Both the position numbers and the translations under genes were made by a program. Under the pieces are notes generated by a model. The model had not been told where the DNA came from. It did not search any database and saw nothing but the letters and a program-made list of their open reading frames with translations. From IMG/VR virus record IMGVR_UViG_2909303794_000008: DNA of 38,381 nt. One strand, written 5' to 3'. This stretch comes from a virus (lineage: Duplodnaviria > Heunggongvirae > Uroviricota > Caudoviricetes). Shown one piece after another: positions 2,621 to 35,569 of the stretch (positions are counted from its first letter, which is position 1; each line of letters opens with the position of its first letter).

Positions 2621-2732
2621 AACTGAAGTTGCCCTGAAAATGAAATTTTTTTGCACAACCGCAGAACTTTTCCGCAGGGCATCAGTCTTAATTAGTGCCA
2701 CTGCTTTTCTTTGATGTCCCCATTTTGTGGAG

Positions 2733-2775
2733 CCCATCAACCCCGCCATTTCGGTTCAAGGTTGATGGGTTTTTT
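2733..2775 (+). terminator. rho-independent terminator (probably ybjL, host side of prophage junction)
   Basis: perfect 10-bp stem cccatcaacc(2733-2742)/ggttgatggg(2760-2769) followed by T6 (2770-2775); coordinates anchored on ybjL and ogr stop codons. Confidence 0.55.
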
Positions 2776-2855
2776 GTTGCCTGAAATTTAAGCTGTTTAA
2801 AATCATGATGTTAGAAACACTGTTTTTTAACGATGGCGACAAAATGGCGGCAGCG

Positions 2856-3074
2856 TCAAAGAGAGAGCGCCACCTGTCCTGATTTCATTGGATGCGGCTG
2901 AACCGGATTTGACTCTTTTGGCGTTGCAATCGAACGAACAAAAGTTTCATGGGTAACAAAAGTATGGCTGCAGTTAATGTTCTGGCACTGGTTGTAACGC
3001 TCTTTGGTCAATGAAGATACCTGAAAACTGCTGCGAGTATGGGCGGCACTTCCACACAGTGGGCAAATCATCAT
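2856..3074 (-). CDS. ogr: Ogr/Delta-type zinc-finger late-gene transcription activator
   Basis: MMICPLCGSAAH...CQNINCSHTF C4 zinc-finger pattern as in P2 Ogr; start moved to internal Met (72 aa) to match Ogr length; located just downstream of gene D as in P2. Confidence 0.8.
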   Translation of the reverse strand: MMICPLCGSAAHTRSSFQVSSLTKERYNQCQNINCSHTFVTHETFVRSIATPKESNPVQPHPMKSGQVALSL

Positions 3075-3164
3075 TTTTCGAGTTCTCCCCATTTTTGCTA
3101 AATTCACAATAATGATACCGCACTATTCCATTTTGCAAACTTAAAAGTTCTCCATTGCGAAGAA

Positions 3165-4265
3165 TCATTCCATTTCGAAATCATCAATCCTCACTTCAAG
3201 CTCCAGACTGGTCGTAAAACCGTTATCCGGGCTGACGGTATGCGTCAGAGTCGTAATGGTCCATTCCGCATCATCTATCGGCTGTTTAAAGCCACTGACT
3301 TTCACTGGCATTTCCGTGTAGAGATCTGCCCGCCCTTCTGCCAGTTGTAGCGAGAATGACGCAACGCCGCGTTGCAGGCGTTCCCACTGCATTTTCGCCG
3401 CTCGTTCGGCGTTGCTCCGGTTGGCATAAGTGCGATTAAGTACCAGCACGTTTTCATCCGTACCCACCAGGTAATCGCCCTGCTTCGCTTCTGGCTCTTT
3501 CTTCTGCTTCTTAGTTCTGCGCTTACGCTTCACCGTGGTGCTTTCTTTCTTCGCAGGTTCGCGGGTATGCAACCAGCTGGCAATTACGCCCGTGTAGGCT
3601 CCGCGATCTGCCAGGGTAAAGCGGTGACTGTCGCCGTCCTTGCGTGTGATAGTGATCACTGGCAGTGGTTTACCAGTGGCGCTTTTGCCCTGCCCCTGCC
3701 GGATGAATAGCAGATTGCCATTTTTCACCGACGCGATGGCACCGTACTGTCGCGCCAGCCGCATCAGAAAACTGCCGTCACTCTCATTAGTCTGGTCTAT
3801 ATGTTCCACGGGCTTATCCGACAGGTCTTTACCCAGCGCCATCTTCAGCTTGTGACGCGCGGCTATTTCCTTTACCACTTCCCCGACGGTGGTCTTGTGC
3901 CAAGATTTTTCACGGCGGGTATTCAGGGTTTCCCGAAAATCAGCACTTCGCGCCCGGATAGTCAGGCGGTCCGGTGCGCCAGTGTGTTCAATCTCGTCCA
4001 CCGTGAATGCCCCTTTCGGGAAAAGCGGCTGCCCCTTCCAGCCCAGCGCCAGCGTAATGACCGCACCACGGCGCGGCAGCACGATTTTTCCATCGGCGTC
4101 GTCCAGCTCCAGATCAAGCTGGTCCGCTTCAAATCCCCGGTTATCCGTCAGCGTCAGCCCCATCAGGCGGTTGTCCAGCACAGTGGTGATATCCCTGCCT
4201 TCAATACTGATGCTGAATGCCGGAGTTTTGTTGCCTTTGTTAAGCAGTTCAGAGCTGAAATTCAC
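3165..4265 (-). CDS. D: tail protein D (late control gene D)
   Basis: 366 aa, last gene of the FETUD tail operon; P2 gpD-like sequence and position. Confidence 0.85.
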   Translation of the reverse strand: MNFSSELLNKGNKTPAFSISIEGRDITTVLDNRLMGLTLTDNRGFEADQLDLELDDADGKIVLPRRGAVITLALGWKGQPLFPKGAFTVDEIEHTGAPDRLTIRARSADFRETLNTRREKSWHKTTVGEVVKEIAARHKLKMALGKDLSDKPVEHIDQTNESDGSFLMRLARQYGAIASVKNGNLLFIRQGQGKSATGKPLPVITITRKDGDSHRFTLADRGAYTGVIASWLHTREPAKKESTTVKRKRRTKKQKKEPEAKQGDYLVGTDENVLVLNRTYANRSNAERAAKMQWERLQRGVASFSLQLAEGRADLYTEMPVKVSGFKQPIDDAEWTITTLTHTVSPDNGFTTSLELEVRIDDFEME

Positions 4266-4747
4266 GACAGAAGCCCTCCCACCGTTTTACTGATATCGCT
4301 TAAGGCTGATGTTGCCGTTCCCTGCAGATTATTCAGCTGCGCACTGAGATCACCGAACATATCGGACAGGGATTCATCCACCCGTTTGAGCGACAGGGTG
4401 AACTCAATCCGGCGCGGCATACCGTCGCGGAAAAACTCCGTTTTAGTCTGCTTCAGTCCCTCAATCACATACATGCCGTAAATCGTGCCGCTGCCTTCAA
4501 TCAGAGGCCATGCTTTCCCCTGTTCTGCCATCTGCTCCAGTGCCAGCAACGACAGCCTGCCGCCTGTTATCTCCGGCATAAGAACACCGGAAAGCGTCAG
4601 CATGTCGTTGTCCGGTCCCAGAAACTGCGTGGACGGACGACGATTTACCCGGCTGTTAGCCGCATGTCGCCAGCTGCGCTGATACTGCAGTTCCTGATAC
4701 GGCACGGTGCGCAGCATAAACACGTACAATCCCAGCACCATCATCAT
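4262..4747 (-). CDS. U: tail protein U
   Basis: 161 aa; 4-nt overlaps with T and D; P2 gpU position. Confidence 0.85.
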   Translation of the reverse strand: MMMVLGLYVFMLRTVPYQELQYQRSWRHAANSRVNRRPSTQFLGPDNDMLTLSGVLMPEITGGRLSLLALEQMAEQGKAWPLIEGSGTIYGMYVIEGLKQTKTEFFRDGMPRRIEFTLSLKRVDESLSDMFGDLSAQLNNLQGTATSALSDISKTVGGLLS

Positions 4748-8829: not shown

Positions 8830-10002
8830 TTACGCGCTGACCTGGCTGGCAAAATTCACCAGATACTGATCGGTGATGCGCTGGCGCAGCATCAGATTTT
8901 CAAGTGGCGGCACTGGCGTGTAGTCGTAGTCGATGGTGAGCTTCCCGGCTTTCAGCGTGTCTTTATCGTTCACCGACTCGTCCAGCCAGCAATCACCACC
9001 AATGAGATAGCCCTGACTGACCAGGCTGCGCATTTTGGCGCGGATACCTTCGATAATGTCGCGGGCCAGCGACTGGTTCAGCGGTTTGTCCACCGCCCAC
9101 ATGTGCGCTTCTGCCATCGTGTCCATCAGCACCTGCGCCGTGCGGGTGTAGTTTTCGAAGGCAAAGAGCGGATCATCGCTCAGACAGCGGGAACCCCAGA
9201 AGCGAAAACCATCCTTGCGCACAAGCGTGGTGACGTCGTTCTGGTTCAGCAGACCTGCATCGGTTGCCGGGTCCTGCAGATCCCAGAACACATCTGCAGA
9301 AATTCCGGTGACACCGTTCACGCCCACGTTGGACAGGCTTTTGTGCCATCCGGTTTGCTCGTCAATTTTGGCGCGCAGACCAAGCGCACGGGCGGTGGCA
9401 TATGCCGTTGCTTCGGCATTCAGCACAGTGTCCCAGCCAGTAAAGTCAGGCCAGATCAGCATCCCTTCGCGCTGGCTAAAGTTTTCACGGTAAGTGATCG
9501 CCTCCTGTACCGTCTTGCAGCCATATGCTGACAGGTAAGCAAATCCACGCAGGCTTTGCGCCACGCTCAGCAACTCAGTAGCTACCGCCTTGGTGTCGTG
9601 GCCTGGCACGCCGAGAATGCGCGGTTTAACGCCGAGCTGTGACTGGGCAGATAACAGGGCTTTCATACCTGTTTTTTTACCTTCAGCAGTCACTGCGCCG
9701 ATGATATTGGTCGTGGTTTCGTCTTCCGTTTCACCCTGCGGCACACGCACAACAACGGTCACGGGTTTTGCCTGGTCAGCGATGGCATCCAGCGAACGGG
9801 CCAGCGTACCGGACTCACCCGCTTTACCGCTGGCAGTAAGCACATCAGTGATCAGCACGGGTTTATTAAGAGGGAACATTTTTGCATCGGCATCATCGCC
9901 CGTGCAGACCATGCCCACGATGGCGGTGCTCACCGTAGTAATGGATCGAGTGCCTTCGTTGACTTCAACAACGCGCACCCCGTGGTGGTAATCCTGAGCC
10001 AT
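8830..10002 (-). CDS. FI: contractile tail sheath protein FI
   Basis: 390 aa; ATG at 10002 preceded by AGGAGG; P2 gpFI-like. Confidence 0.9.
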
Positions 10003-10078: not shown

Positions 10079-10096
10079 TGTACCGTTATTCACACA
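10079..10096. promoter_or_regulatory. TGT-N12-ACA dyad (Ogr-type late promoter activator site) upstream of FI
   Basis: tgtaccgttattcacaca; centre ~85 bp upstream of the FI ATG. Confidence 0.5.
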
Positions 10097-10144: not shown

Positions 10145-10711
10145 TCAGGGAGATTCATTGCTCTTATTTGCCGGAAATTTTCGATAAATGGTAGAAACGC
10201 CTACATCAAAAATCAGTGCAATACGCTGTCTTGATTCTCCGGCCTCGAGTAAACGCCCAATCTGTGCCCACTGTTCGCTGGTCAACTTAGGACGGCGTCC
10301 ACCTACTCTGCCTTTAACACGAGCTGCAGCCAGCCCTGCCCTGGTACGTTCAACTATCAGTTCGCGTTCCATTTCAGCCAGGGCACCCATGACATGAAAA
10401 AAGAAACGGCCCATTGGGGTACTGGTATCAATACTGTCAGTCAGGCTTCGGAAATTCACGCCACGCTGGCGCAACTCTTCTATCAGCGTAACAAGATGCC
10501 GCATACTGCGCCCCAACCTGTCCAGCTTCCAGACAACCAGCGTGTCTCCTGCCGATAGTGTTCTGAGCAGTTTTTTCAGTCCCGGTCGGTCGGACTTCGT
10601 GCCGCTGATTTTATCCTCAAAAATCCGCTCGCATCCTGCGCACTCCAGCGCGTTACGCTGCAATTCCGTGTTCTGGTCATTTGTTGACACGCGTACATAG
10701 CCAATAAGCAT
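10145..10711 (-). CDS. serine DNA invertase (Pin/Gin/Cin/Hin family)
   Basis: MLIGYVRVSTNDQ N-terminus with catalytic Ser, resolvase core and C-terminal HTH; start set to second ATG (10711) with better spacing to the AGGGGG SD; sits 56 bp outside crossover site A. Confidence 0.9.
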   Translation of the reverse strand: MLIGYVRVSTNDQNTELQRNALECAGCERIFEDKISGTKSDRPGLKKLLRTLSAGDTLVVWKLDRLGRSMRHLVTLIEELRQRGVNFRSLTDSIDTSTPMGRFFFHVMGALAEMERELIVERTRAGLAAARVKGRVGGRRPKLTSEQWAQIGRLLEAGESRQRIALIFDVGVSTIYRKFPANKSNESP

Positions 10712-10766
10712 GAGCATCCCCCTGAATAAAAACCGGAGATGATGCCAGTTGCCCGTTATCTCTGCA

Positions 10767-10792
10767 TTTTCATAAACGTTGGTTTGGGAGAA
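10767..10792. repeat. invertase crossover site A (gix/pix-like, 26 bp)
   Basis: ttttcataaacg-tt-ggtttgggagaa; its reverse complement matches site B in 15 contiguous bp (CTTCTCCCAAACCAA). Confidence 0.7.
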
Positions 10793-11152
10793 GCGGCAAA
10801 ACGGGATGTGGGGACAGGGGAAAATCAGATACCGGATATCTCCAACTTTCCATTTACAAAAAACAATCCTCTTAATTTTGAGTTACCAGGAGGATTAATT
10901 CTGAAAGCCGGGTATGGAAAGCTGACAACGCAGTCCAGTATCTGGATTAATTTCCCTGCAGCATTCCCTAATGACTGTATTGCCGGAGGAGCTTTAAGTG
11001 CGGAAGAGAACACAAATGACTATGTATTTGCTCAAACTACATCACGCAAAGCAGGAGGATTAACTCTGGCGTTTTATCGTGGGGGCATTAGTCAGCCACC
11101 AACAGCCAATTCCAGAGAACTTTCTTTCTCGTGGTTTGCGATAGGATATTAG
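10781..11152 (+). CDS. alternative tail-fibre C-terminal variable domain (silent orientation; would fuse to H after inversion)
   Basis: the codons GGT TTG GGA GAA (GLGE) are in frame at both crossover sites, so inversion gives an in-frame H constant-variable fusion; the track ORF 10739-11152 starts outside the segment. Confidence 0.6.
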   Translation, partial: GLGEAAKRDVGTGENQIPDISNFPFTKNNPLNFELPGGLILKAGYGKLTTQSSIWINFPAAFPNDCIAGGALSAEENTNDYVFAQTTSRKAGGLTLAFYRGGISQPPTANSRELSFSWFAIGY

Positions 11153-11153
11153 A

Positions 11154-11594
11154 ATGAGAATTTTTTTCAGTGCATCAACATTGTGGTTTTATGATGAAAC
11201 TCGCAAAGAAGAATATCACAACGGTATTGGATGGCCAGATGATGCTATCGAAATATCAGATGATGAATGGAATAAATATACGCAAATTCCTCCTGATGGT
11301 TTTATATTAGGTGCCACCTCTCAGGGAAGACCTGCATGGATATTAATATCTCCGCCAGATAAAAAAATGGTTATGGATATTGCTGAAACTAAAAAACAGC
11401 AGTTAATTAGCCAGGCCAATGAATACATGAACAGTAAACAATGGCCCGGTAAAGCCGCTATTGGTCGTCTGAAAGGCGAGGAACTGGCGCAATATAATTT
11501 GTGGCTGGATTACCTGGACGCACTGGAGCTGGTTGATACCTCCAGTGCTCCAGATATTGAATGGCCTACGTCTCCGGCAGTTCAGGCCAGATGA
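11154..11594 (+). CDS. tail fibre assembly protein (alternative copy, Tfa')
   Basis: 146 aa directly after the alternative fibre end; C-terminal LDYLDA...DTSSAPDIEWP motif shared with G. Confidence 0.7.
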   Translation: MRIFFSASTLWFYDETRKEEYHNGIGWPDDAIEISDDEWNKYTQIPPDGFILGATSQGRPAWILISPPDKKMVMDIAETKKQQLISQANEYMNSKQWPGKAAIGRLKGEELAQYNLWLDYLDALELVDTSSAPDIEWPTSPAVQAR

Positions 11595-12168
11595 CATCCG
11601 GCGCTGTGCTGGTATCTGTTGCCGTCACCGCGTCAATGTAATCCAGCACAGCGTTAAGCCGGGTTGTTTCTGCCTGCGTCAGTTTACGTCCGGCCTGCAA
11701 TTTCAACTGAATCAGACTGACGGAAGCCATTGCTGCATCAATTAGTGGCTGGCGCAGTGCTTCTGCCGCGTCTACTGCGGCATTATGCTGTGCCTCAGTA
11801 TCTGTCACCCATTTCTCACCATCCCATTCATCGTATGGCGTTAACGGAGCGATAGTGGTCGTATTTTCATGATAATCACCCGGACCTGTGATTTCTTTCG
11901 ATTCTCCTGTTTCGGTGCTATAAACGATTTCACCGCGATGGTCTGGCACATATTCCCATGAGTTTAAATCCATCGAACGGCAGATAGCATAACCCGCCTT
12001 ATGTGTGCCAGGGGCATCTAAACAGGAATATGCAGGGATACCGACACCAATGGCAAGATATTCATTTGAAGTGGAAATATATTCCCGAGTTTCACCATCA
12101 TAGTTATAGACGGTAATATTCCCCGCCTTCGTGGCAATAAGCTCGCTATTTAATACGGCGTTATCCAT
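11566..12168 (-). CDS. G: tail fibre assembly protein G (active orientation)
   Basis: 200 aa directly after H (1-nt TAATG overlap); C-terminal LDYIDA...DTSTAPDVIWP motif. Confidence 0.8.
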   Translation of the reverse strand: MDNAVLNSELIATKAGNITVYNYDGETREYISTSNEYLAIGVGIPAYSCLDAPGTHKAGYAICRSMDLNSWEYVPDHRGEIVYSTETGESKEITGPGDYHENTTTIAPLTPYDEWDGEKWVTDTEAQHNAAVDAAEALRQPLIDAAMASVSLIQLKLQAGRKLTQAETTRLNAVLDYIDAVTATDTSTAPDVIWPELPET

Positions 12169-13667
12169 TATGCAGCCCTCACGATATAGTTAAATGCAAT
12201 ATTTCGTGGACGGGTTTCACTCCCGCCGGGGAGCTGAAAAGCGTTGATAATCCCACCGCTTGCCTGACTTATTCCATCCGTGTACAACCCGCCACCGGCA
12301 CTGTCGCTGAGTGCAAATGTTTTTGATGGTGAACTGTTTGAAGCTGGCCCCCAGTATTTTAATGCGAGCTTTCTGACTTCATCACTCTGAATACTCAATA
12401 AAGCACGCCCTGTATCAATGCCGCGCCCATCATCCCAGCCACGAATAAACTCACCACGTAAATCAGGCAATTTATTTGTCGGATAAGCCTTTGCCAGTTC
12501 CGGGTATTCTTCAGCAGAAAAAGCTGCACCGTTGCATTTCAGCCAGCCTGTCGGCGGAGTGGCTGAAGGCCATGGAACAGGGACACCAACAGGTAATGCC
12601 GAACCTTCTCCCAAACCAAGGTATGTGAGAAGACCAGCTACATCCTTTCCACTCAAATTAGTCAGCGTATTGTCCAGCGGTTGTTTACCTGCCAGTGCAT
12701 TAAGCATTGTCGTGGCAAAGTTTGGGTCATTCCCCAGCGCCGCCGCCAGTTCGTTCAGTGTATCCAGTGCCGCAGGTGCAGAACCTACCATTGCCGCAAT
12801 CGCCGATTTCACAAAAGCCGTAGTGGCAATCTGTGTATTGTTGACCGACTGTGCCGCAGTAGGTGCTGTTGGCGTTCCGGTGAGTGCCGGACTCGACAAC
12901 GGCGCTTTCAGTGCCAGCGCATTGTTAATGGTGGTACTGAAATTCGGATCATTGTTAATGGCTGCGGCTATTTCTTTTAGCGTGTCCAGCGTGGCTGGAG
13001 CACCATTAATAAGGGCCGTCAGTGCCGCCTGAACAAACGCGGTGGTCGCAACCTGCGTGGTGTTATTCCCTGCCGCTGGCGTTGGCGCTTTTGGTGTCCC
13101 GGTAAACGTCGGACTTTCTTTCTGTGCATACTGTGAATGCGGGTCCGGTGCGGCAAGATGTTTTGCCATCTGATCATCCACGTACACCTTCAGCTCCAGT
13201 ACCTTGTCATCCACATACTTGCGGGTTGCCAGCACTACGGCAGGGTCGATTTTCAGGGTGATATTGTCCGTGCTGCTGGTAATCAGCACCATGCGCACGG
13301 TCTGGGTACGCCCGCTGCCTTCAGCCAGTTGCGGTTTATAGCTTTCCGGGCAGTTCCCCACGGCAATCAATGCCCCTGACTCATCAAACAGGCCCACTTC
13401 ACGTATCCACCAACCGCCCTCGTTTTCAGGGATCACCTGTTCAGCAATAATCTGGCTGCTGTTCTGCGGGTCGATATAGAGCATATTCAGCGCAGCCCGG
13501 CGTTTCTCATTTACCAGTGCCGTCTGCTTTGCGTCCGGCGTCGGCAATGCTCCGCCGCCATCGCCCACCGCCATATGGGTAATTTTTAGCGGCACACCGA
13601 GCGCGGCGGCGCTGGCAAGTTTCGCCGCGCCAATATCCGTCAGCAGGGTATAAAATTTTGTGCTCAT
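12168..13667 (-). CDS. H: tail fibre protein H
   Basis: 499 aa with conserved N-terminus and repeated Ala/Thr-rich segments; crossover site B lies at codons 351-354. Confidence 0.9.
   Translation of the reverse strand: MSTKFYTLLTDIGAAKLASAAALGVPLKITHMAVGDGGGALPTPDAKQTALVNEKRRAALNMLYIDPQNSSQIIAEQVIPENEGGWWIREVGLFDESGALIAVGNCPESYKPQLAEGSGRTQTVRMVLITSSTDNITLKIDPAVVLATRKYVDDKVLELKVYVDDQMAKHLAAPDPHSQYAQKESPTFTGTPKAPTPAAGNNTTQVATTAFVQAALTALINGAPATLDTLKEIAAAINNDPNFSTTINNALALKAPLSSPALTGTPTAPTAAQSVNNTQIATTAFVKSAIAAMVGSAPAALDTLNELAAALGNDPNFATTMLNALAGKQPLDNTLTNLSGKDVAGLLTYLGLGEGSALPVGVPVPWPSATPPTGWLKCNGAAFSAEEYPELAKAYPTNKLPDLRGEFIRGWDDGRGIDTGRALLSIQSDEVRKLALKYWGPASNSSPSKTFALSDSAGGGLYTDGISQASGGIINAFQLPGGSETRPRNIAFNYIVRAA
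12606..12631. repeat. invertase crossover site B (inside H)
   Basis: ttctcccaaacc-aa-ggtatgtgagaa; inverted copy of site A; resembles gix-type half sites. Confidence 0.7.
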
Positions 13668-14269
13668 GGATTCACTCTCATTGTGTCAATAACATGGACC
13701 GCCCCGCCTTCATGCGCGGTGCCACCGGAAATAATCGTTTCGTTGATATACGGATAGATCGTGATTTCTTCGCCAAGATAGCTGGCGGCTCCCACCCAAT
13801 GCGGGCCGCTGGTCTGCAGATTGATGGACATGCCGATCATGTGGCGGCTACATGGTTTGGCATCGCTTATCAGTCGCTCAAGTTCCAGATAGGTATCTTC
13901 AGTAATGCCCTGGTCCTGCACGCCGATATCCAGGCGAAACGTGCCCGGTGCCTCTCCGGTCTGCCACCACTCAATAATGCGGATCAGAAAGCCGAACGGC
14001 TCCACCACCCGCCGCACGGCACTGGTGGTCCCTTTATGCTGATGAATATAAAAAGCATCCTTCACCACCTGGCGCTTGACGCTTTCTGTCCAGCTCTCGT
14101 CCCAGCGATCCACAGAGAACGCCCAGGCGAGATAAGGCAGGAAACTGACCGGACAGGTTGCCGGATTCCACAAGTCACGCAGCGGCACCTGCAGATCAGA
14201 AATCCCACTGCAGGTTTGCGCCAGTCGTCGCTCCAGTGAAGTTGAACCCGGTGGCAGCAGACTATTCAT
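13664..14269 (-). CDS. I: baseplate protein I
   Basis: 201 aa; overlaps J and H ends; P2 gpI position. Confidence 0.8.
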   Translation of the reverse strand: MNSLLPPGSTSLERRLAQTCSGISDLQVPLRDLWNPATCPVSFLPYLAWAFSVDRWDESWTESVKRQVVKDAFYIHQHKGTTSAVRRVVEPFGFLIRIIEWWQTGEAPGTFRLDIGVQDQGITEDTYLELERLISDAKPCSRHMIGMSINLQTSGPHWVGAASYLGEEITIYPYINETIISGGTAHEGGAVHVIDTMRVNP

Positions 14270-24953: not shown

Positions 24954-25271
24954 TTATATACCACATACAAAATTGATCTTAACGCTTTTATCAACAACAA
25001 GCAGAGAAGTGCCAACAGACTTAATAAATCCCAGTTCATACTCTTCTGAATGCGTCATTGTAATAATATGAACAGGAACAAATAAATCAAGCTCCCGCAG
25101 CTTTCGCTTCAATAATAAACCATCGACACAATCACCTATCACAAGCATATCAATATCATTTGCATCGCAAAAACTCTTTAATGCTGACCCAAATACATAT
25201 ACATCCACCATATATAAACTATGATGGATAATAACATCACAGATCGATTCAATCGTATGTTTAAAATTCAC
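24954..25271 (-). CDS. minimal nucleotidyltransferase (Pol-beta superfamily, MNT-like)
   Basis: 105 aa with the GS-X9-DID motif (VYVFGSALKSFCDANDIDMLVIG); GTG start overlapping the upstream TAG stop by 1 nt; AT-rich. Confidence 0.6.
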   Translation of the reverse strand: MNFKHTIESICDVIIHHSLYMVDVYVFGSALKSFCDANDIDMLVIGDCVDGLLLKRKLRELDLFVPVHIITMTHSEEYELGFIKSVGTSLLVVDKSVKINFVCGI

Positions 25272-25930
25272 TACCGTGAAATTCTTCGTAATAAATCACC
25301 CAACTTGTAAAGCTCCACCCCGATACTTTGAGCAGCCTCTTTTGCCTGAGTCGTCAATCGTCCATTAGGATTGGAGGAAAAAACAACATCACAATTGCCA
25401 TGCAACCCTATCGCATCTCTTACAGAACCCGCTGTCATATCATAATCATTCGCAGCGATAATAACTAAGTCCGCCAAGCCACGTCTTTTAAGTCTATATT
25501 TTTTGTTGGTTTCTCGCTCTACAGAGCTTACATGTGAATGTTGATTGAACACTCTATTTATAAACAAATGCTCTTTATCAAGATGCTCAAGCGGATTATT
25601 AGCTCTTAAAGAAGATGCAATATGCCCAAATGAACCCACTCCTATTTTCTTTTGTTCTAGTAATCTCATTGCATCACCAGAGATAAATTCAACACCTCCC
25701 TTGACTGATAGAAAATCAATTTTTTTATTGTCTAGGTATTCATTTATCTCAGGACATGTTATCCGGCCAGTATTGATTGCCCCGATCAAATAGGTGTCAC
25801 CCTGTGTAGTATTAATCACTAAAGTACCATCACCTATCACCTCTATATTTTCGACACATTTATTTTCTTGTAATTTTCCTGCCATCCATGAAATATAGCC
25901 TTCACTCGCATTTATGCTCATTGGATTCAT
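25271..25930 (-). CDS. hypothetical protein, middle gene of three-gene cargo operon
   Basis: 219 aa; ATGA overlap with the upstream gene and 1-nt overlap with the downstream gene; no domain recognised with confidence (weak Rx6H HEPN-like motif RANNPLEH). Confidence 0.5.
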   Translation of the reverse strand: MNPMSINASEGYISWMAGKLQENKCVENIEVIGDGTLVINTTQGDTYLIGAINTGRITCPEINEYLDNKKIDFLSVKGGVEFISGDAMRLLEQKKIGVGSFGHIASSLRANNPLEHLDKEHLFINRVFNQHSHVSSVERETNKKYRLKRRGLADLVIIAANDYDMTAGSVRDAIGLHGNCDVVFSSNPNGRLTTQAKEAAQSIGVELYKLGDLLRRISR

Positions 25931-26622
25931 CCTATAAATAGTTCAGATGCAGCTTCTGGAAACCTACTACCATTAGCATCGGTTAAGCCCAAATGTTTTG
26001 ATTCAAAGTCATCTATATGAACACAAAGCTTTGAAAAAACATTCTTCTCATCTTCACTCATGAGGTGATAGTTTTGTTCAACCAGTCGCTGTACTTTTCT
26101 ATTGTTGGGTAAGATATGAGATTGTACTTTTCTTAACCATACTTCTGCATTTGGATTTTCAGGGTCAACGCTGTTCTCTTGGGTTGGTCCATATGTTACA
26201 AAAATGGTATTGTTTTCTCTGAAGTATTTTTCTAACTCCTGTCTAACAGATTCTCGATTGTCATATGTTTTAACACCAAAGGTTGCATTTATTTTATCAA
26301 TATGGCCGTTTTTCCAAGAACGGATAATTTCATCAGTAAAATGTTCCTCTGCCTTATCAATTGTCGTATGGCAATTAGCACATAGAAGAATAATGTTGTC
26401 AAAATGACCTCTCTGCTCATCAGTTAGATCAGCATTGGTTCTAGGTCCATTATCAATGGCACTAAAAATGTGAGCAAGTTCTCCAATTGTTATATTTTTG
26501 TCGCCAGCATCAACAAACAAAGGTTGCAAACATTGTGGATTTTGGCAAAAGCCACCTGAGCTGGCAAAAAGCCGTCTAACTGTATTAGCGTTTGGAGAAG
26601 CTTTTCCCCTACTGCAAGCCAT
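25927..26622 (-). CDS. HNH endonuclease-domain protein
   Basis: 231 aa; CQNPQC...GELAHI...N...LLCANCH (HNH with zinc-binding cysteines); ATG at 26622 with AAGG SD. Confidence 0.65.
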   Translation of the reverse strand: MACSRGKASPNANTVRRLFASSGGFCQNPQCLQPLFVDAGDKNITIGELAHIFSAIDNGPRTNADLTDEQRGHFDNIILLCANCHTTIDKAEEHFTDEIIRSWKNGHIDKINATFGVKTYDNRESVRQELEKYFRENNTIFVTYGPTQENSVDPENPNAEVWLRKVQSHILPNNRKVQRLVEQNYHLMSEDEKNVFSKLCVHIDDFESKHLGLTDANGSRFPEAASELFIG

Positions 26623-26710
26623 GAACTAACCTTAAAAGTATAGAAATTAGGATGTTAATTTATTACTGAACAACCCTATAAGCAAGCTTGCTAATTGTGG
26701 TGAGCGCGCG

Positions 26711-26729
26711 CTCGTATCCCCGCCACGCC
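26711..26729 (-). other. putative cos (cohesive-end) site
   Basis: minus strand reads GGCGTGGCGGGGATACGAG followed by CGCGCGCTCAC; the first 13 nt match the P2/186 cohesive end as I recall it (GGCG[A/T]GGCGGGGAAAGCA[C/T]); lies in the intergenic gap between the two cargo clusters. Confidence 0.35.
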
Positions 26730-26914
26730 TGCCCGCTTTATGTAGCGGTTTTCATGCAGGCGCATGATCTACGCAAAATCCCACCAGTTCTGGCGTGCCT
26801 TAGCAAAAACGATCCGCAAACGATCATGCGATCTCATGCGGCATAGTCATGCACTTACGGGGGAAGTGAAATCCCGTAACCGAATGACCGCTTGAAAAAC
26901 AAAACTCTCGTTTT

Positions 26915-26949
26915 TATAAAGCACAAAGTCCGCTTTGAGCAAAGCGGAC
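26915..26949 (-). terminator. rho-independent terminator downstream of the KAP NTPase gene
   Basis: stem gtccgcttt(26928-26936)/aaagcggac(26941-26949) followed on the minus strand by TTTGTGCTTTAT. Confidence 0.5.
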
Positions 26950-27014
26950 GTTAATAATTTTACTGACTATCCCTAGTACTTCTAATAATATTGCCTATGT
27001 TAATCAACAAAAAG

Positions 27015-28907
27015 TTAATCAGTTCCCTCAGTAAAGAATTTGATTGCGCTAGTTAGTACATAGTCAATAAAAAACTTTACGTGAAAAACCTGAAAGGAGT
27101 TATTGGCTGCGTTTTGAGTGAAATCTACAGCTATCTCTTTTAGGTTAATCAACCAGTTGTATTCTTCGGTCAGTCTGGTTCTAGCATCCCCATCAGAATA
27201 ACGATTCCGCAAGCTAAATGCCAGTTTCCTCATGAGGACTGGGTCAAGTTTCCTATAGCTTTCAATGAAAACTTCAGGAGGAACCAAGTGTAAAAAAGGC
27301 ACGTTATGAAGATTTAACTGCCTATTATTAGAATGACTCAATTCAGATACAAACGATAAGTTTCCCCTTTGCAACTCATCGCTGAACTGCAACGCAAATT
27401 CCGGAATTGATTCATCAAACCGTTTCTTCTTCGCTATCTCAATATGCTCAATAATGAGTTTGAATTCATCGCTATCCCTGTCAAGAAAACCAAAGCCACG
27501 CCATGCCCTTAATTCGTTATAATGCGTTTGCGCATATTCCTTATGTATATCTTCAGCTCTAAGTCTATTATAATAATTATTTATATTCTGTTTTGTCTCA
27601 TTTATGAGATCATGAACATCATCTGTTGTTAGACCTTCTTTCGCCATGTCCAGCAAAATACTCGCGGTCATCAGGAGTTCACCTAAGGAAGTGATCTTAC
27701 CTGAAAATAGATTATCCTTGGCAATGGCGTACTGCTCATTAAGCATAGTTTCATTAAGTTCTCGATAGTTCCACAAATACTCCCATGCTTGGGCATCGGT
27801 GCTTCTAAAAAATCGCGTAATATCCAACTGAGCGAGAAGTTCACTCGTTACCTTTCCATCACAGATTAGCTCCCTCCAGTACGCACCATCCAGTAACTTC
27901 TCGGTTAATACAGGAGATGAATATTTCTCGACGATCATGTCATACTTAGTTTTGGTACGCTCTTTACCTAAAAACATACCATAATTAACATTGCTGATTG
28001 AATCGAAATCCTCGTAGTTAAGGTTCCCTCCCCGGTACTCTATCGAGAAAATTAACAACTGCTGGAAAAATACCCTCATAAAATCGTCGTTGCTGACATA
28101 TTTATTTCCCAAAAGGGAAATGATGCGTTGTACATCAAGAAAGAACTGCCTCAAGTGTCTTAGATTATTATATTTCGCCGACACATAGATGTCTTCTATG
28201 GCCTGCATATCTTCTTTAAATATATTAGCAACGTGTAAACTGCTAATTACGCCCAAAAAAACATTACAAGCACTATGTAAATCTGACGTTACTTCAAATG
28301 TTTTACCAACAAGCTTTTCTTTTGTTCTCATGTATTCGCTGCTAGATTTCTCGTCATCATTATTTATTCGCTTTTCTCTATTGATTATTTCTTCTTCATT
28401 GGCAACCAAGATCGCTTTGTATCCGTTTACTTCTACAAAGTGGTTTATATATCCAAATAAAATTGGTAAATCTATACCAGCTCTCTCGATATCATCAAAG
28501 ACCAGCACAAAACCATCTGGTTTTCTACTAAAATCGTTAAGATTAATGGTGGGAACATTGGTATTGACATCAACGTCAGATTTATTATCGCCATTGAGAT
28601 CGATCTTGAAAGTAGCCTTAAGCGTATTTTTTAGTACATTTGCACCAAAGATAAGGGCTTTGTTTGATAGGACAGGATGAAGTTGACGATAGAACTCATC
28701 TTCAATCTGCTTAATAGAGTTGACGCCATACAAACTCACTTTTAGAAATTTAAACTCTGAATTCTTCTGCTTATATTCTTCAAGAACTTGTTCAATGAAC
28801 CAAGTTTTACCTGATCCCCAAGCACCTTTAAGCATAATGGCGTATTGAGGTTCAGTTGTAAGGCTAAGGTAATATTCTATATAGTCTTTGATGTACGTAT
28901 TGTTCAT
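27015..28907 (-). CDS. KAP-family P-loop NTPase
   Basis: Walker A GAWGSGKT near the N-terminus and Walker B-like VLVFDDIER about 100 aa later; start set to ATG 28907 (the track start 28958 is TTG); AT-rich. Confidence 0.7.
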   Translation of the reverse strand: MNNTYIKDYIEYYLSLTTEPQYAIMLKGAWGSGKTWFIEQVLEEYKQKNSEFKFLKVSLYGVNSIKQIEDEFYRQLHPVLSNKALIFGANVLKNTLKATFKIDLNGDNKSDVDVNTNVPTINLNDFSRKPDGFVLVFDDIERAGIDLPILFGYINHFVEVNGYKAILVANEEEIINREKRINNDDEKSSSEYMRTKEKLVGKTFEVTSDLHSACNVFLGVISSLHVANIFKEDMQAIEDIYVSAKYNNLRHLRQFFLDVQRIISLLGNKYVSNDDFMRVFFQQLLIFSIEYRGGNLNYEDFDSISNVNYGMFLGKERTKTKYDMIVEKYSSPVLTEKLLDGAYWRELICDGKVTSELLAQLDITRFFRSTDAQAWEYLWNYRELNETMLNEQYAIAKDNLFSGKITSLGELLMTASILLDMAKEGLTTDDVHDLINETKQNINNYYNRLRAEDIHKEYAQTHYNELRAWRGFGFLDRDSDEFKLIIEHIEIAKKKRFDESIPEFALQFSDELQRGNLSFVSELSHSNNRQLNLHNVPFLHLVPPEVFIESYRKLDPVLMRKLAFSLRNRYSDGDARTRLTEEYNWLINLKEIAVDFTQNAANNSFQVFHVKFFIDYVLTSAIKFFTEGTD

Positions 28908-29221
28908 TTTTAGTCCATTTTGATAAAATACATAAACATAGATGGTAAGTAGAGCCAAAGGCCAACTATGGAAAATTCAATCGGTAGTGTACATTGTAAG
29001 GTTATTATTAGTAAATTTTATAGAAATGCCCATAATCTTACAAAATTCAGATTATCCGTTGCGAATTAGTCTGCCATTCGTTAATTAACGAAAGTTAGCA
29101 GAAGAAACGTTTGCATCTTGCACAAAGCAGACGATCATTTATCAAAATGACCTTACACCTTATTTCACTCGTTGCCCAAACTAGCCCCCATCAGAATGAA
29201 TCCTCCTGGGGGCAACGTTTC

Positions 29222-29807: not shown

Positions 29808-32222
29808 TTAATACAGGTTCCGCCACTTATCATCTTCCTGCAAACGCTGGTTCCAATAGAAGATACGCAGGCCTGCTCCTGACGGAATACTGCCGCCGCG
29901 AAGGAGTAAATCGACCTCTTTCTCGCTGCCATCAAATCCTCTGGATTTCAGTTCATAGACGAGCTGCTGTCGTTGATGGTCTGTAATTCGCTGTTTGTAG
30001 TCTCTACGTCGTTTCGGTTTCACCAGACGTAACCTTGCAGCCAGTTCCCGGCGCTCCTTTTTGTTCATACTGTGCAGGTAATCGTGCAACTCCTTGTCAT
30101 CCATGCGGGTAAAGTCCGTTCTGGGGTCCCCATCAGCTGATTTATCTTTCTCCTGTTGGTTCAAATTTTCAGCAAGGGGACAGTTATTGCCACGAGTCCA
30201 AGGGGCGCAAGCGCCCTGGTCGGCTGCCGCCTCCTGAACATCAACGGCCTTACGAACCATTTTCCACTTCACGGCATGAGTGCAGATCTTGCCCTCTGCA
30301 ATAGGTGACCAGATGCCATAAATACGAATGCCGTGATCGCCATAGGCGGTCGGCTCTTCGTTGATTTCATAAGCGGTTCTGATGAGGTGATATTTGCGGG
30401 GAACCAGTACGCCGCCCTGCTTCATGATGTAGGTGGCAAAACAACCAGCATCAGCAGCAGCCAGGATGGCATCAAGGCGTGGGTTATCCAGTACCGGCGC
30501 ACCTGCTTTTTTGTCCCCCTGTTGCCTTGCCGCCTGACCAGCCAGCAATCGCAGTTCACGGTAAGCCTGACGCCCCGGAATGCCAAAGAAGCGGAATTGC
30601 TGAACACGATGCAGAGACGCCCAGGCATTAACGTATTCAGCATTATCACGCAGGGATTTCCCCGTTTCCTTGCTGATCTCGCCAGCCAGACCACGCCCGT
30701 CAATGTTCTTACTGATGTATTTCGCGATGTAGCTTGTTGGCGTTCCTTTGCGCGGGTTAATCAACTCAGACTTAAAGCGCGGCCCAGTGTTATTGCCCAG
30801 CTCCTCGCGGTCTTCACGGATGGCAAACTTACGCAGTAATGCAGTGATGGCACGGCGGTCTTTTTTGCGCATGAAACACAACAGGTGCCAGTGAACTGTG
30901 CCGTCATGATGCGGCTCAGCCACCCGCACGCCATACCAGCGCAACCCGGCTTTGTGCATCGCCTTACGAAATGCAGCAAACATGCCGACCAGATAATCGC
31001 TGCTTTGTCTTACCGTCGCGTTTGTCCAGGTCGGGTTTGGTCTGCCGTTATTGAGCGTGGAATGGAAACGTGACGGACAGGTGATGGTGTAGAAAACGGC
31101 GCAGTCACCGCGCATTTCCGCGATAAGCTCCAGACCTTTAACACAGGCCATCATCTCATTGCGGCGATGCGCCGGGTTGCTGCTGCTGGCGTTTACCACA
31201 TCCTCCATGTCCAGCGTGTCGCCGTCTTCGTTCACCAGTTCATGAGAACGGAAAAACTCCAGCGACTTACGGCGCTGCTCACGTTTATGCATCACGGCTT
31301 CATAGCTGACATAGGGAGATGCTTTTTTGCTGACCAGGCAGACAGCACGCAACTGCTCTTCCCGCCATTCGCAACGCATCTTCCATAATTTCCGATACCA
31401 CCAGTCGGCGCACAACATACGCGCCAGCGAACCCGGAATGAGTTCATAGGGCACGGGTTTACGGCGGTTTCTTTTCCGACGGAGTTGCTCAAACGCAGGA
31501 GGGATTACATCCAGACGCAGGGTTTCCGCTGCCACCTTTTCCCATGTCTTGCGGATTTCTTCTGGCTTAACGTCATCGGTGGCATACAAATCACCACAAG
31601 CTGCATCAAGGCACATGCTCATATGCGCGGCAACAAGGGTAGACAGGCGCTTCACCTGATCCTGACTCATTTCAGGCAGGATCAGCAGGCCGTCCAGCCC
31701 TTCATGGCTTGCCATAAAGCGAAAAGAAGTGGATAGCTGACTCTCGCGTACATGCTCCAGTCGTTCCAGACATGGCTTAATCGTCTCACGCAAATAGCGG
31801 GAATAAGCCTTTGGCCTGCCCAGGCTGCTGAAGTATTCAATACGTTGCATCAGCGGCTTGCTGATATGGGAAGGCTGGGCGTTGACGTCCGCCAGAATGA
31901 CCATATCCGGATTAAAACGCTGCTGCTCATGCGCCAGCTTTGCCCGACTAATGAGCTTATCCTGCTCGATTTCGCGCTGGACAGGATCACGGGATTCATT
32001 AAAGAAATAACGCTCCCAGACCTGATCACTCAGCGCCTCACGGCGCAGCTGTTCCTGCTCGTTATCGGCAGCGTACAGAGTGATCAGGTTTGAAAGCGCA
32101 GAAACCGGCGCAACTTCCGCCGGGTCCAGATAAGGGTTAATGGCCTTTTTCGGGCTGCTCCATGAGAATGCTGCTGCGACCTCGTTAAAGCCGCTGCAGT
32201 TGTTCATATCAGCATGGCTCAT
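29808..32222 (-). CDS. A: replication initiation endonuclease A (rolling-circle Rep)
   Basis: 804 aa; HWH metal-binding motif and YIAKYISKN tyrosine motif; ATGA overlap with dam. Confidence 0.9.
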
Positions 32223-33076
32223 GCACGCACTCCGTACACGGCAGAACTATCCACGCCACGCGAAGGATCAAATCCCACCCAGCAGCGCGGCCCGGAAACA
32301 GCGATGATTTCTGTTGCTGATTTACACTCGCCAGCTGCCACACCGATGCTGCGTTTTACCTTGATATAGTGGTGAGTAAAATTGCGATACAGCGAACGAA
32401 TCAGGGATGTGTCACTGTTAGAAACAATGACCGGATGTCCTTCAGATGATCGATGTTCAAGAACGGATGCCAGGTGATACTGGTCATCTTCAGTGAAACC
32501 ATCAGTGTGATAGCCGGAAAACGTACCGTCATAAGGCGGATCGCAATACACCACATCCCCCGCCTTCAACATCGCCAGCGTTTCATCAAAGCTGGCGCAG
32601 ATAAACGTTGCCCGCTGGGCTTTTTCTGCAAATGCGCGAATTTCTTTTTCAGGGAAATACGGTTTTTTATAATTCCCGTAGGGAATGTTGAAATGTCCGC
32701 TCTTGTTATAACGACATAACCCACGGTAACCGTGACGATTGAGATACAGGAAATATACTGCTTTCATGAAATCAGTAATTTCAGATGAGTAATTAAACTC
32801 CTGCCTTATGTTGTAATAAGCCACCTCCCTGTTTGCTTCCTCAAATAAGACTCTGGCACGAGATATAAATGATTCGCAATCAGCGGCAATCTTTTTATAG
32901 AGGTTGATTAAATCAGGATTAATATCAGCAACCAGATAGCTGGGGTAATCCGTCGCCATCATCACAGCACAGGAACCCGCGAAAGGTTCAACCAGTCGCG
33001 GGCCAGCAGGAAGGTGTTTTTTCAGTTCGGACATAATGGCGGTTTTATTACCCGCCCATTTCAGGATGGTGCTCAT
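32219..33076 (-). CDS. dam: DNA adenine methyltransferase (Dam-like, GATC type)
   Basis: LKWAGNK, EPFAGS (motif I) and DPPY (motif IV); start set to ATG 33076 (ATGA overlap with the upstream gene). Confidence 0.85.
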
Positions 33077-33300
33077 ACAGCACCTCCGTTGTAATGTTTG
33101 CCTTTCAGCTCTGCGATTTCCTGGCAGGTAATGCAAAGCTGCACTCCCGGAATGGCGCGGCGTCGTGCTGGCGGAATTGGCGCTTCACATTCAATACAAA
33201 GCACGCGAGACACGCCCGGTGTTTTGGCACGGGCAGCACGAATATGGCGCTGGCGTTCTTCTTCAACGCGCTGCTGTACGAGATCCATTGCATCAGCCAT
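33073..33300 (-). CDS. TraR/DksA-family C4 zinc-finger protein
   Basis: 75 aa; CIECEAPIPPARRRAIPGVQLCITCQ. Confidence 0.6.
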   Translation of the reverse strand: MADAMDLVQQRVEEERQRHIRAARAKTPGVSRVLCIECEAPIPPARRRAIPGVQLCITCQEIAELKGKHYNGGAV

Positions 33301-34972: not shown

Positions 34973-35569
34973 ATGTCAACATCAAAGTACCCAAATGAGA
35001 TCAAAATAAATCCCAATAAAGGTGGTAAGGCTGCGATTGAGCGATTAGTCGAAGCTTATGGCTTTACGACACGACAGGCTTTAGCTGATCACTTGGAAGT
35101 ATCAAAAAGCACTCTGGCGAACAGGTATTTGCGGGATACGTTTCCTGCAGACTGGATAATCCAATGTGCTCTTGAAACAGGAACCTCACTGAAATGGTTA
35201 ACCACCGGGCAAGGCCTTAAGCAAAGCTCGCTGACAGCAGCTACAGAAGAGCTTGCCAAGTTTCGCCTTACCGCAGGCAAAATGATTGAAGATGGTTCAT
35301 ATGTCTTCGATTCATCATTTCTTCCTGCAAATCTTTCATCACCAATTGTTATTCAGGATGGGCTCGTCACATACATTTGTGATCAAAAATTTTCTGAAGT
35401 ACTTGATGGGCACTGGTTAATCAACATCGACGGAACCTATTCCATTCGAAAAATCACAAAGCTTCCAAAAGGTATGATTAAAATTACAAGTACAGAGAAT
35501 AGCTTTGAATGTGCATTTTCTGATATTGAAGTAGTTGCTTGTATAAGAAGTACAATAGTTTCAAATTAA
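34973..35569 (+). CDS. cI: CI immunity repressor (phage 186 CI type)
   Basis: 198 aa; N-terminal EAYGF...LANRY...CALETG...WL.TG and C-terminal WLINIDGTYSIRKITKLP resemble 186 CI. Confidence 0.8.
   Translation: MSTSKYPNEIKINPNKGGKAAIERLVEAYGFTTRQALADHLEVSKSTLANRYLRDTFPADWIIQCALETGTSLKWLTTGQGLKQSSLTAATEELAKFRLTAGKMIEDGSYVFDSSFLPANLSSPIVIQDGLVTYICDQKFSEVLDGHWLINIDGTYSIRKITKLPKGMIKITSTENSFECAFSDIEVVACIRSTIVSN

Follow-up and report, generated by a model that had tools for sequence, protein, structure and literature searches.

A Pin/Gin-type invertible tail-fiber segment in a P2-like prophage of Escherichia coli

We analyzed a stretch of viral DNA of 38,381 nucleotides (Caudoviricetes; IMG/VR record IMGVR_UViG_2909303794_000008), which is referred to below as the window. 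Its tail genes are arranged as in P2-like phages, V-W-J-I-H-G ... FI-FII-E-T-U-D, and the interval between G and FI is a variable slot. Tail_P2_I and Phage_tail_fib domains and the sheath gene were found, and the RefSeq annotation of a 99.9%-identical record concurs; the flanks are 95-98% identical to those of the Peduoviridae phage Cartapus. In P2 itself (NC_001895), the genes are arranged in the order H, G, terminator, fun(Z), FI. In the window, the slot between G and FI (FI = 8830-10002) holds silent cassettes and an invertase gene in place of fun(Z), and the comparison with NC_001895 confirms the proposal of the initial annotation that the invertase occupies the Z/fun position. The P2-type late operon appears to be intact, with its gene H completed by the cassettes, and a TGT-N12-ACA motif upstream of FI (10079-10096) is presumably an Ogr-type site. 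The features of the locus are compiled in Table 1.

Table 1. Features of the invertible tail-fiber locus (positions refer to the window)
Feature	Position	Strand	Description
DNA invertase gene	10145..10711	-	Small serine recombinase (188 aa), Pin/Gin/Cin/Hin group; Resolvase + HTH_7
Putative Fis (recombinational) enhancer	10622..10693	-	nt 19-90 of the invertase coding sequence; homology to the annotated Cin enhancer
Recombination site A (invertase-proximal)	10767..10792	.	TTTTCATAAACG TT GGTTTGGGAGAA; inverted-repeat arm
Invertible segment	10779..12619	.	1841 bp between central dinucleotides; simulated flip matched by natural genomes
Silent alternative fiber tip Hc'	10793..11152	+	119 codons after GLGE; Gp53-like_C, PF21882, E 1e-12
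Silent tail-fiber assembly gene tfa'	11154..11594	+	146 aa, cognate to Hc'; Caudo_TAP, E 4.8e-31
Expressed tail-fiber assembly gene (P2 G position, TfaE-like)	11566..12168	-	200 aa; Caudo_TAP, E 2.5e-29
Expressed variable H tip, StfE-like	12168..12605	-	145 residues after GLGE; Collar, E 3.8e-15
Recombination site B, inside H	12606..12631	.	TTCTCCCAAACC AA GGTATGTGAGAA; inverted-repeat arm; overlaps GLGE codons
Constant N-terminal part of tail-fiber gene H	12620..13667	-	Residues 1-~350; Phage_tail_fib, E 3.5e-65

The invertase reading frame would yield a protein of 190 aa, instead of 188 aa, if translation began at the upstream ATG at 10717. The protein combines a catalytic domain possessing the serine residue with a C-terminal helix-turn-helix (Resolvase, E 6.5e-53, and HTH_7), the arrangement of small serine recombinases, and the Mu Gin structures 3UJ3 and 4M6F align with it from end to end (E 2e-92). 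It is 83.7% identical to Pin of e14 and 72.9% identical to Gin of Mu, and only four to five substitutions separate it from the invertases of loci known in both orientations. The catalytic Ser9 is intact within the sequence YVRVSTNDQ, and the protein also has the DRLGRS motif, in keeping with the Pin/Gin-type assignment made earlier. In invertases of this family, basic residues of helix B (Hin 47/48/51) and Q151/R154/L155 of helix 1 of the DNA-binding domain contact Fis and the enhancer, and the Q-x-x-R-L motif and these basic residues are specific to the Fis-dependent enzymes (PMC3798978). Read against this published description, the window's invertase carries K46, K47, R50 and Q-I-G-R-L at the contact positions. 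The record of phage P1 places the enhancer at nt 19-90 of cin, and the homologous stretch in the window is 78% identical to that of P1 and 85% identical to that of e14 pin. Conservation at its synonymous sites is raised only slightly, and a G-N13-C scan of this stretch for a pair of Fis sites about 48 bp apart gave a weak signal and no clear pair. The homology suggests that the stretch may function as a recombinational enhancer and that inversion may depend on Fis.

The two 26-bp sites, described in the initial annotation as gix-like and inverted, belong to the top inverted repeat of the region, whose arms (10767-10793 and 12605-12631; 27 nt) are 85% complementary. Read as its reverse complement, site B is TTCTCACATACC-TT-GGTTTGGGAGAA, and both sites possess the identical 15-bp core (10779-10793 and 12605-12619) that had been reported for them. 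Each consists of two imperfect 12-bp half-sites around the same 2-bp center, a 12-2-12 layout that matches the gix sites of Mu and the pix sites of e14; the reverse complement of site A matches the pin-proximal site of e14 at every position, and it is at site A that the junction of natural inversions falls. The 14-nt core TTGGTTTGGGAGAA is present in exactly two copies in the 38-kb window, one on each strand (0.31 matches are expected by chance when up to two mismatches are allowed). This core search of the window revealed no third recombination site of the kind that gives one EPEC prophage a shufflon-like character. The codons for residues 351-354 of H (GLGE; 12606-12617) overlap site B, and our translation agrees with the annotation that site A, too, encodes GLGE in the same frame.

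Each of the two fiber tips lies directly upstream of its own Caudo_TAP gene, and the two tip-chaperone sets point toward one another. The Caudo_TAP genes are convergent, overlap at their 3' ends by 29 nt and share the C-terminal motif LDY(I/L)DA...APD(V/I)xWP, as the initial reading of the locus had it. When the segment was flipped in silico, the 145 C-terminal residues of H were exchanged for 119 others, which created an in-frame H' of 473 aa in place of the 499-aa H. The crossover thus falls inside the fiber gene and leaves the N-terminal part constant, with alternative C-termini in frame both ways. This bears out the predicted replacement of about 145 residues by a C-terminus of about 120. 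The flip likewise exchanges G for the convergent assembly gene, as had been proposed, and this flipped state is found in public genomes. Pfam places the two tips in separate families (Collar versus Gp53-like_C), which is consistent with different receptors. Searches of both tips and both chaperones against S/S' of Mu, U/U' of P1, and G and the H C-terminus of P2 gave no match at E 1e-3; we class the cassettes as e14 type rather than Mu/P1 type. A short open reading frame begins outside site A; since its leader is not conserved among homologs, it looks like an artefact of gene calling. That the silent tip is never expressed was suggested by a protein search with the tip by itself, which returned short proteins (79-215 aa) only. 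This result proved to be an artefact of candidate selection: partial junction proteins and an exact look-up of tfa' recovered full H' proteins of 473 aa.

Taken together, these features indicate that the locus is very probably an active Pin/Gin-type invertible tail-fiber (host-range) switch in a P2-like (Peduoviridae) E. coli prophage. The invertase, which is the probable agent of the inversion, would pair sites A and B, cut at the central TT/AA dinucleotide and flip the 1841-bp segment. The late V-W-J-I-H-G operon would enter the segment from outside, so that inversion would leave all but the 3' end of the message unchanged. In the state found in the window, the cells would produce the 499-aa H with its StfE-like Collar tip together with the TfaE-like chaperone; in the inverted state, they would produce the 473-aa H' with its Gp53-like tip together with the other chaperone. 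With two alternative sets of H and chaperone, a lysogen population would release two virion types that differ in receptor specificity, and the two orientations would thus be expected to differ in host range.

Public genomes contain this very allele in both orientations. The L024 chromosome matches the simulated flipped window in a single collinear piece (99.97% over 6441 nt), and the H' proteins encoded by the L019 and L023 assemblies are 100% identical to the prediction; in the flipped genomes L018, L019, L023 and L024, Hc' continues the reading frame of the constant part of H, and the resulting proteins are 473 aa long. The exact silent chaperone gene was found on 24 contigs, about 11 in the window's state and eight in the flipped one. 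For related loci, 57 complete E. coli genomes show the window's state and 39 the flipped one. In relatives, the exactly reverse-complemented middle measures 1814-1863 bp between identical flanks; strain FDAARGOS_1248 harbors two copies that have identical flanks and differ by an exactly reverse-complemented middle of 1814 bp, and in O25b:H4 the chromosome and an extrachromosomal record are in opposite states. Contigs of 239 nt spanning the junction agree with the predicted one at identities of 100%, 99.6% and 97.9%. Their length equals 112+15+112, or 2k-15 for k=127, the size to be expected of a de Bruijn bubble when a culture is mixed. This contig size and the sibling, tandem and extrachromosomal pairs suggest that both orientations co-occur within one culture. 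As judged from comparisons between genomes, the anatomy, the in-frame fusion and both natural states of the allele, with their junctions at the sites, can be regarded as demonstrated. Of the two findings that the initial annotation had named as speaking against a switch, a single orientation and a mutated catalytic serine, neither was encountered.

The locus might instead be a frozen relic, with an inherited architecture that no longer flips to any meaningful extent and with the opposite states found elsewhere representing old, fixed variants. The exact silent cassette occurs in four of 5426 complete E. coli genomes and is in the window's state in all four, which would fit such a relic; flipped examples are found in the wider collection. 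Furthermore, E16, V132 and S145 of the window's invertase were not found in any of the six invertases compared. These substitutions are conservative, however, and lie away from the catalytic motifs. Identity between the flipped copies and the window is 99.9-100%, and the inversion is the only difference between the sibling assemblies L018 and L021, whose accession numbers are adjacent and whose contigs measure 235,065 and 235,066 nt. With the probable bubble origin of the junction contigs added to this, we consider a relic very unlikely.

Comparative data reveal breakpoints and not the enzyme that made them, and the inversions could in principle stem from RecA-mediated homologous recombination of the host between short inverted repeats rather than from the adjacent invertase. 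The identical repeat is only 15 bp long, however, and the repeats have the 12-2-12 gix/pix layout, with one of them identical to an e14 pix site. An intact Pin homolog always adjoins the switch in the loci compared. In addition, Pin-family invertases are documented to invert the homologous P segment of e14 (PMC4272514, PMC12529663). We therefore attach almost no credence to a RecA origin and continue with inversion by the invertase as the preferred reading.

The type of switch, to which Mu G, P1 C, e14 P and p15B Min belong, the enzyme family and their presence in P2-like prophages are already established. The e14 P segment has the same layout as the window's segment (tip and chaperone facing chaperone and tip, with the chaperone genes overlapping by 29 nt), is of similar size (1797 bp, PMC12529663, versus 1841 bp) and shares the inner half-site GGTTTGGGAGAA. 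TfaE of e14 is 89% identical to the expressed chaperone and the StfE translation is 61% identical to the expressed tip. The silent half is divergent: TfaP is 45% identical to the silent chaperone, and the silent tip found no match in e14 at E 1e-3. The e14 element is defective, is not of P2 type and has a short fiber of about 209 aa, while the window's cassettes complete P2-type H proteins of 499 or 473 aa with a Phage_tail_fib N-terminus.

Two P2-like prophages of EPEC strain E2348/69 were found by sequencing and PCR to invert, with 93% and 90% in the forward orientation (Goldberg et al., 2014; PMC4272514). These loci possess a P2-type tail context and an invertase (80% identical) beside the sheath gene; the same core TTGGTTTGGGAGAA and homologous TfaE-like (89% nt) and StfE-like (92% nt) cassettes are present in one of them. 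They differ from the window in their silent tip; moreover, the 2.98-Mb locus is a truncated remnant, and three repeats and four states characterize the 1.89-Mb locus. The same module in the gene order I-H-tfa/tfa'-tip-invertase-FI is present in other sequenced Peduoviridae, such as Escherichia phage Cartapus (NC_070909), phage 500465-1 and the Klebsiella phages Kp48xx, with tip/chaperone cassettes that differ from those of the window. In Cartapus, site A is identical and the invertase, annotated as 'Mu phage Gin invertase homolog', differs by four residues. A preprint describes invertases in the Z/fun hotspot with inverted neighbors, and we found the arrangement to be common among E. coli P2-like prophages.

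The G segment of Mu (Gin) and the C segment of P1 (Cin) follow the same logic, with a crossover inside the fiber gene, a constant N-terminus, two tips with their chaperones and an adjoining invertase. Their sites share the 12-2-12 layout. The Mu and P1 segments are longer, at about 3 kb and 4.2 kb, their crossover is near the 5' part of S, their tips are unrelated to those of the window at E 1e-3, and the phage backbones differ; in P1, moreover, the end of cin that carries the site is the 3' one. The anatomy, the homology to Pin, Gin, Cin and e14, and the occurrence of the same allele both ways uphold the view that the window carries Mu G/P1 C logic in a P2-type tail module.

The kinship with e14 raises the question of whether the segment is selected mainly in the lysogen and not in the virion, with the fiber-tip protein of one orientation blocking adsorption of other phages. 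StfE2, which is made through PinQ-driven inversion of the e14 P segment, is reported to have this effect (PMC12529663), and the likeness of the expressed tip and chaperone to StfE and TfaE at the protein level is accompanied by 92% nucleotide identity over 245 nt beside site B. Here, however, the cassettes supply the 3' end of gene H in a P2-type late operon that appears to be intact, the short open reading frame outside site A is probably a gene-calling artefact, and nothing points to expression in the lysogen. We judge such a main role in the lysogen to be highly improbable and retain a tail-fiber switch of the virion as the preferred reading.

One further locus, L025, contains the full segment (10779-12619) with 100% identity to the window and zero mismatches. 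The identity stops exactly at both crossover sites. The locus lies in an e14-like prophage that is not of P2 type and whose invertase shows only 54% identity. Because only the core of about 15 bp is shared outside the segment, the comparison points to a recent site-specific exchange, by two inter-prophage recombination events, and not to homologous recombination. We tentatively suggest that the crossover sites may, in addition, serve as portable junctions for the exchange of whole receptor-binding cassettes between unrelated prophages, a possibility that we view with slightly more doubt than trust. The idea of such cassette exchange reportedly goes back to Sandmeier and colleagues in the 1990s, and a clear-cut example of recent date would open it to testing.

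The significance of the switch is practical and opens no new question. For annotation, it means that the RefSeq entries for a 137-aa 'gp53-like domain-containing protein' and for 162-aa 'Collar' reading frames represent silent halves of one fiber gene, and for assembly, that short reads from such loci assemble into fragments, with contigs of about 240 nt. For the prediction or engineering of host range in P2-like phages or P2/P4 delivery particles, it means that a single lysogen may give rise to particles with two receptor specificities.

The switch region lies inside a P2-type tail gene cluster on the minus strand of the window. In phage P2, the genes are arranged in the order H, G, terminator, fun(Z), FI. 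Since fun(Z) is found there between H/G and FI, the silent fibre-tip ORF, the second Caudo_TAP gene and the recombinase gene, all three of which are positioned between the expressed assembly gene and FI, occupy the Z/fun slot, as the initial annotation had proposed for the invertase gene. It had also postulated two inverted gix-like sites, and these coincide with the top inverted repeat of the region (arms at 10767-10793 and 12605-12631; 27 nt, 85% complementary). Exact copies of the 14-nt core of these sites, TTGGTTTGGGAGAA, occur just twice in the 38-kb window, one per strand, and a scan of the same 38 kb with up to two mismatches allowed (chance expectation: 0.31 matches) revealed no third recombination site. 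Translation places site B over H codons 351-354 (GLGE; 12606-12617), and the identical four codons run in frame through the invertase-proximal site A. Simulated inversion of the segment, with crossovers at the central TT (10779-10780) and AA (12618-12619), yielded an unbroken 473-aa protein, H', in which 119 new residues (about 120 had been predicted) replace the last 145 of H. The two assembly genes, correctly described before as convergent, overlap by 29 nt at their 3' ends and have a C-terminal motif in common. All elements described in the initial annotation are borne out by the sequence.

Features of the tail module in the window, and the paired prophage copies of E. coli FDAARGOS_1248
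Feature	Position	Strand	Remarks
Gene I, Tail_P2_I	13664-14269	-	Pfam match
Gene H, 499 aa	12168-13667	-	Phage_tail_fib N-terminus, Collar domain near C-terminus
Tail-fibre assembly gene (expressed)	11566-12168	-	Caudo_TAP
Silent fibre-tip ORF	10739-11152	+	Gp53-like_C domain
Second (silent) tail-fibre assembly gene	11154-11594	+	Caudo_TAP
Serine recombinase gene	10145-10711	-	Resolvase + HTH_7
Sheath gene FI	8830-10002	-	Tail cluster member
FDAARGOS_1248 copies L003 / L004	NZ_CP069542.1 3582475-3588178 / 3549046-3554749		Opposite switch states; 33.4 kb apart

Between site A and the start codon of the invertase gene, a weak terminator-like hairpin with a T-run is present on the invertase strand (10731-10750, minus), where it might reduce transcription running on from the late operon into this gene. 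Inspection of the translated constant part of H by eye disclosed two tandem copies of a motif of about 70 aa (12680-13110; …NNTQ(V/I)ATTAFV…GAPA.LDTL.E.AAA..NDPNF.TT..NALA.K.PL), within which the DNA repeat D17 falls; comparable repeated elements are annotated for P1 S. RefSeq labels the silent tip of the window a stand-alone 'gp53-like domain-containing protein', and in flipped genomes it annotates a 162-aa 'phage tail protein'. Because homologs of such ORFs do not share a conserved N-terminal leader, we regard them as gene-caller artefacts of silent cassettes. An anti-phage role at the lysogen level, as reported for StfE2 (PMC12529663), is unlikely and finds no support here; the leader of the short ORF upstream of site A varies among homologs.

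The recombinase aligns end-to-end with solved structures of Mu Gin (E 2e-92); it shares 83.7% sequence identity with e14 Pin and 72.9% with Gin. A mutated catalytic serine had been named as grounds for rejecting the switch; this serine is retained. According to PMC3798978, basic helix-B residues and a Q-x-x-R-L sequence in helix 1 of the DNA-binding domain are peculiar to Fis/enhancer-dependent invertases, and the window's recombinase possesses both features. Its sites show the 12-2-12 layout of gix and pix, and the pin-proximal site of e14 is the exact reverse complement of site A. With a repeat of just 15 bp, this pix-site architecture and an intact Pin homolog adjoining, inversion via RecA is unlikely. 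The stretch at 10622-10693 is homologous (78% identity) to the Cin enhancer, annotated in the P1 record at cin nt 19-90, and represents a putative enhancer; synonymous-site conservation is raised only a little there, and a simple Fis-motif scan (G-N13-C) revealed no distinct pair of Fis sites. The TfaE and StfE proteins of e14 are 89% and 61% identical to the expressed chaperone and tip of the window, and TfaP is 45% identical to its silent chaperone. The tips of Mu and P1 are unrelated at E 1e-3. In terms of sequence relationships, a P segment of the e14 type, together with a Pin-type invertase, here completes a P2-type H gene.

The window's allele occurs naturally in both states, as the initial annotation had anticipated. 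A search with the silent-tip protein retrieved two partial proteins that span the predicted junction between the constant part of H and the alternative tip (H-const::Hc'), encoded on contigs of 239 nt that belong to three independent NCBI assemblies. The simulated flipped junction is matched at 100% identity by one of these contigs, and against the native window every one of them aligns in two parts, split at the sites. They consist of 112 + 15 + 112 nt, or 2k-15 for k = 127, the length expected of a de Bruijn bubble over the 15-bp repeat, which points to the presence of both junctions in the reads. The exact native junction fragment was found also on 14 contigs, each of at most 240 nt. Exact matches to the silent chaperone protein were located on long contigs that contain the same prophage, some in one state and some in the other. 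Among the loci listed, four carry the window's state (the 499-aa H with a 137-aa silent ORF) and four the flipped state (the 473-aa H' with Phage_tail_fib and Gp53-like_C domains, and a 162-aa silent Collar ORF beside the invertase gene). One flipped locus (L024) matches the simulated flipped window in one piece (99.97% over 6441 nt), and the predicted H' is 100% identical in two others (L019 and L023). Two sibling assemblies, GCA_041358775.1 and GCA_041358795.1, whose contigs measure 235,065 and 235,066 nt, differ by the inversion. Among 24 contigs read, a tally that takes in similar places beyond the loci shown individually, about 11 show the window's state and 8 the flipped one. The sibling pair, together with the bubble contigs and the flipped copies of near-identical sequence, makes a frozen relic that no longer flips unlikely.

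Mixed orientations seem to leave a widespread signature in assemblies: dozens of partial 'phage tail protein' entries (clusters P0081-P0124) resemble junction bubbles produced by this type of switch. They occupy contigs of 207-247 nt in assemblies of E. coli, Klebsiella, Salmonella, Enterobacter and Citrobacter. In L026 (1-2700), a variant of the same prophage, the tape-measure gene and a truncated E gene directly adjoin the silent tip. The invertase gene, FI, FII and the greater part of E are absent, which fixes the fibre in the window's orientation.

The window is 99.9% identical to a prophage of E. coli L725. When 5426 complete E. coli genomes were searched, 57 contained a relative in the window's orientation (at least 80% of the region covered), and a further 39 gave equally good matches to the simulated flipped sequence. 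In strain FDAARGOS_1248, two copies of a related prophage lie 33 kb apart. Their flanks are identical, the central 1814 bp of one copy are the exact reverse complement of those of the other, and the junctions fall at the same sites; the pair reflects either a double lysogen in tandem or a mixed-orientation locus that the assembler duplicated. In strain O25b:H4, the chromosome is in one state and a 29.5-kb extrachromosomal record in the other. The invertases of relatives found in both states differ from that of the window by only 4-5 residues, all conservatively.

The whole 1841-bp segment (window 10779-12619) recurs without a mismatch (100% identity) at 2626-4466 of locus L025, and similarity to the window ends exactly at both crossover sites. 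There the segment is embedded in an unrelated element, an e14-like prophage remnant with Baseplate_J, Phage_Wedge1 and a fibre of 239 aa, and the invertase beside it shares only 54% identity with that of the window. This suggests a recent exchange of the entire cassette through the recombination sites.

The old/tin hotspot (24954-28958), flanked by genes Q (portal) and A (replication), carries as cargo a 647-aa KAP-family NTPase that matches PADLOC candidate PDC-S49 (E 4e-160), a 231-aa HNH nuclease that matches PDC-M68A and the N-termini of CBASS-type effectors, and two further ORFs without a family match. Directly downstream of replication gene A lies a gene for a D12-class (Dam-like) orphan adenine methyltransferase (32219-33136). 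A 558-aa DUF4041 + T5orf172/MUG113 protein (35590-37266) matching the defence system PD-Lambda-1 (E 4e-120) is encoded between genes for a CI-type repressor (34973-35569) and the integrase (37350-38381). Since the window ends at the integrase stop codon and host genes, ybjM-like (288-665) and that of a YbjL-type Asp-Al_Ex/TrkA_C transporter (935-2620), flank the D/ogr end (288-2620), one prophage-host junction is probably located near 2.6-3.1 kb.

Using whole-genome sequencing and PCR, Goldberg et al. (2014; PMC4272514) demonstrated that two P2-like prophages of EPEC E2348/69 undergo phase variation by inversion; the 2.98-Mb locus of this strain has the same core, homologous cassettes (89-92% nt identity) and an invertase 80% identical to that of the window. 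'Phage tail protein I' and 'tail fiber assembly protein' are enriched beside programmed inversions (Milman et al., 2023; PMC9881135), and the P2-like Z/fun hotspot often encodes a DNA invertase with adjacent genes inverted (2024 preprint; 10.1101/2024.10.15.618418). Cartapus and other sequenced phages carry the same module in annotated form. Given this prior demonstration, the surveys and the annotated phages, the window's switch is an already known system that had been read correctly.

In the Gin/Hin/Cin/Pin systems, two invertase dimers bound to the sites form a complex with a Fis-bound enhancer when the DNA is supercoiled; cleavage at the central dinucleotide is followed by strand exchange through subunit rotation. 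By analogy, the window's own invertase would pair the sites, cut the central dinucleotide and flip the segment, presumably with a need for Fis and the enhancer. The late operon promoter lies outside the segment, so that inversion alters only the tip and the chaperone transcribed after codon 354. The two tips belong to different Pfam families and may bind different receptors.
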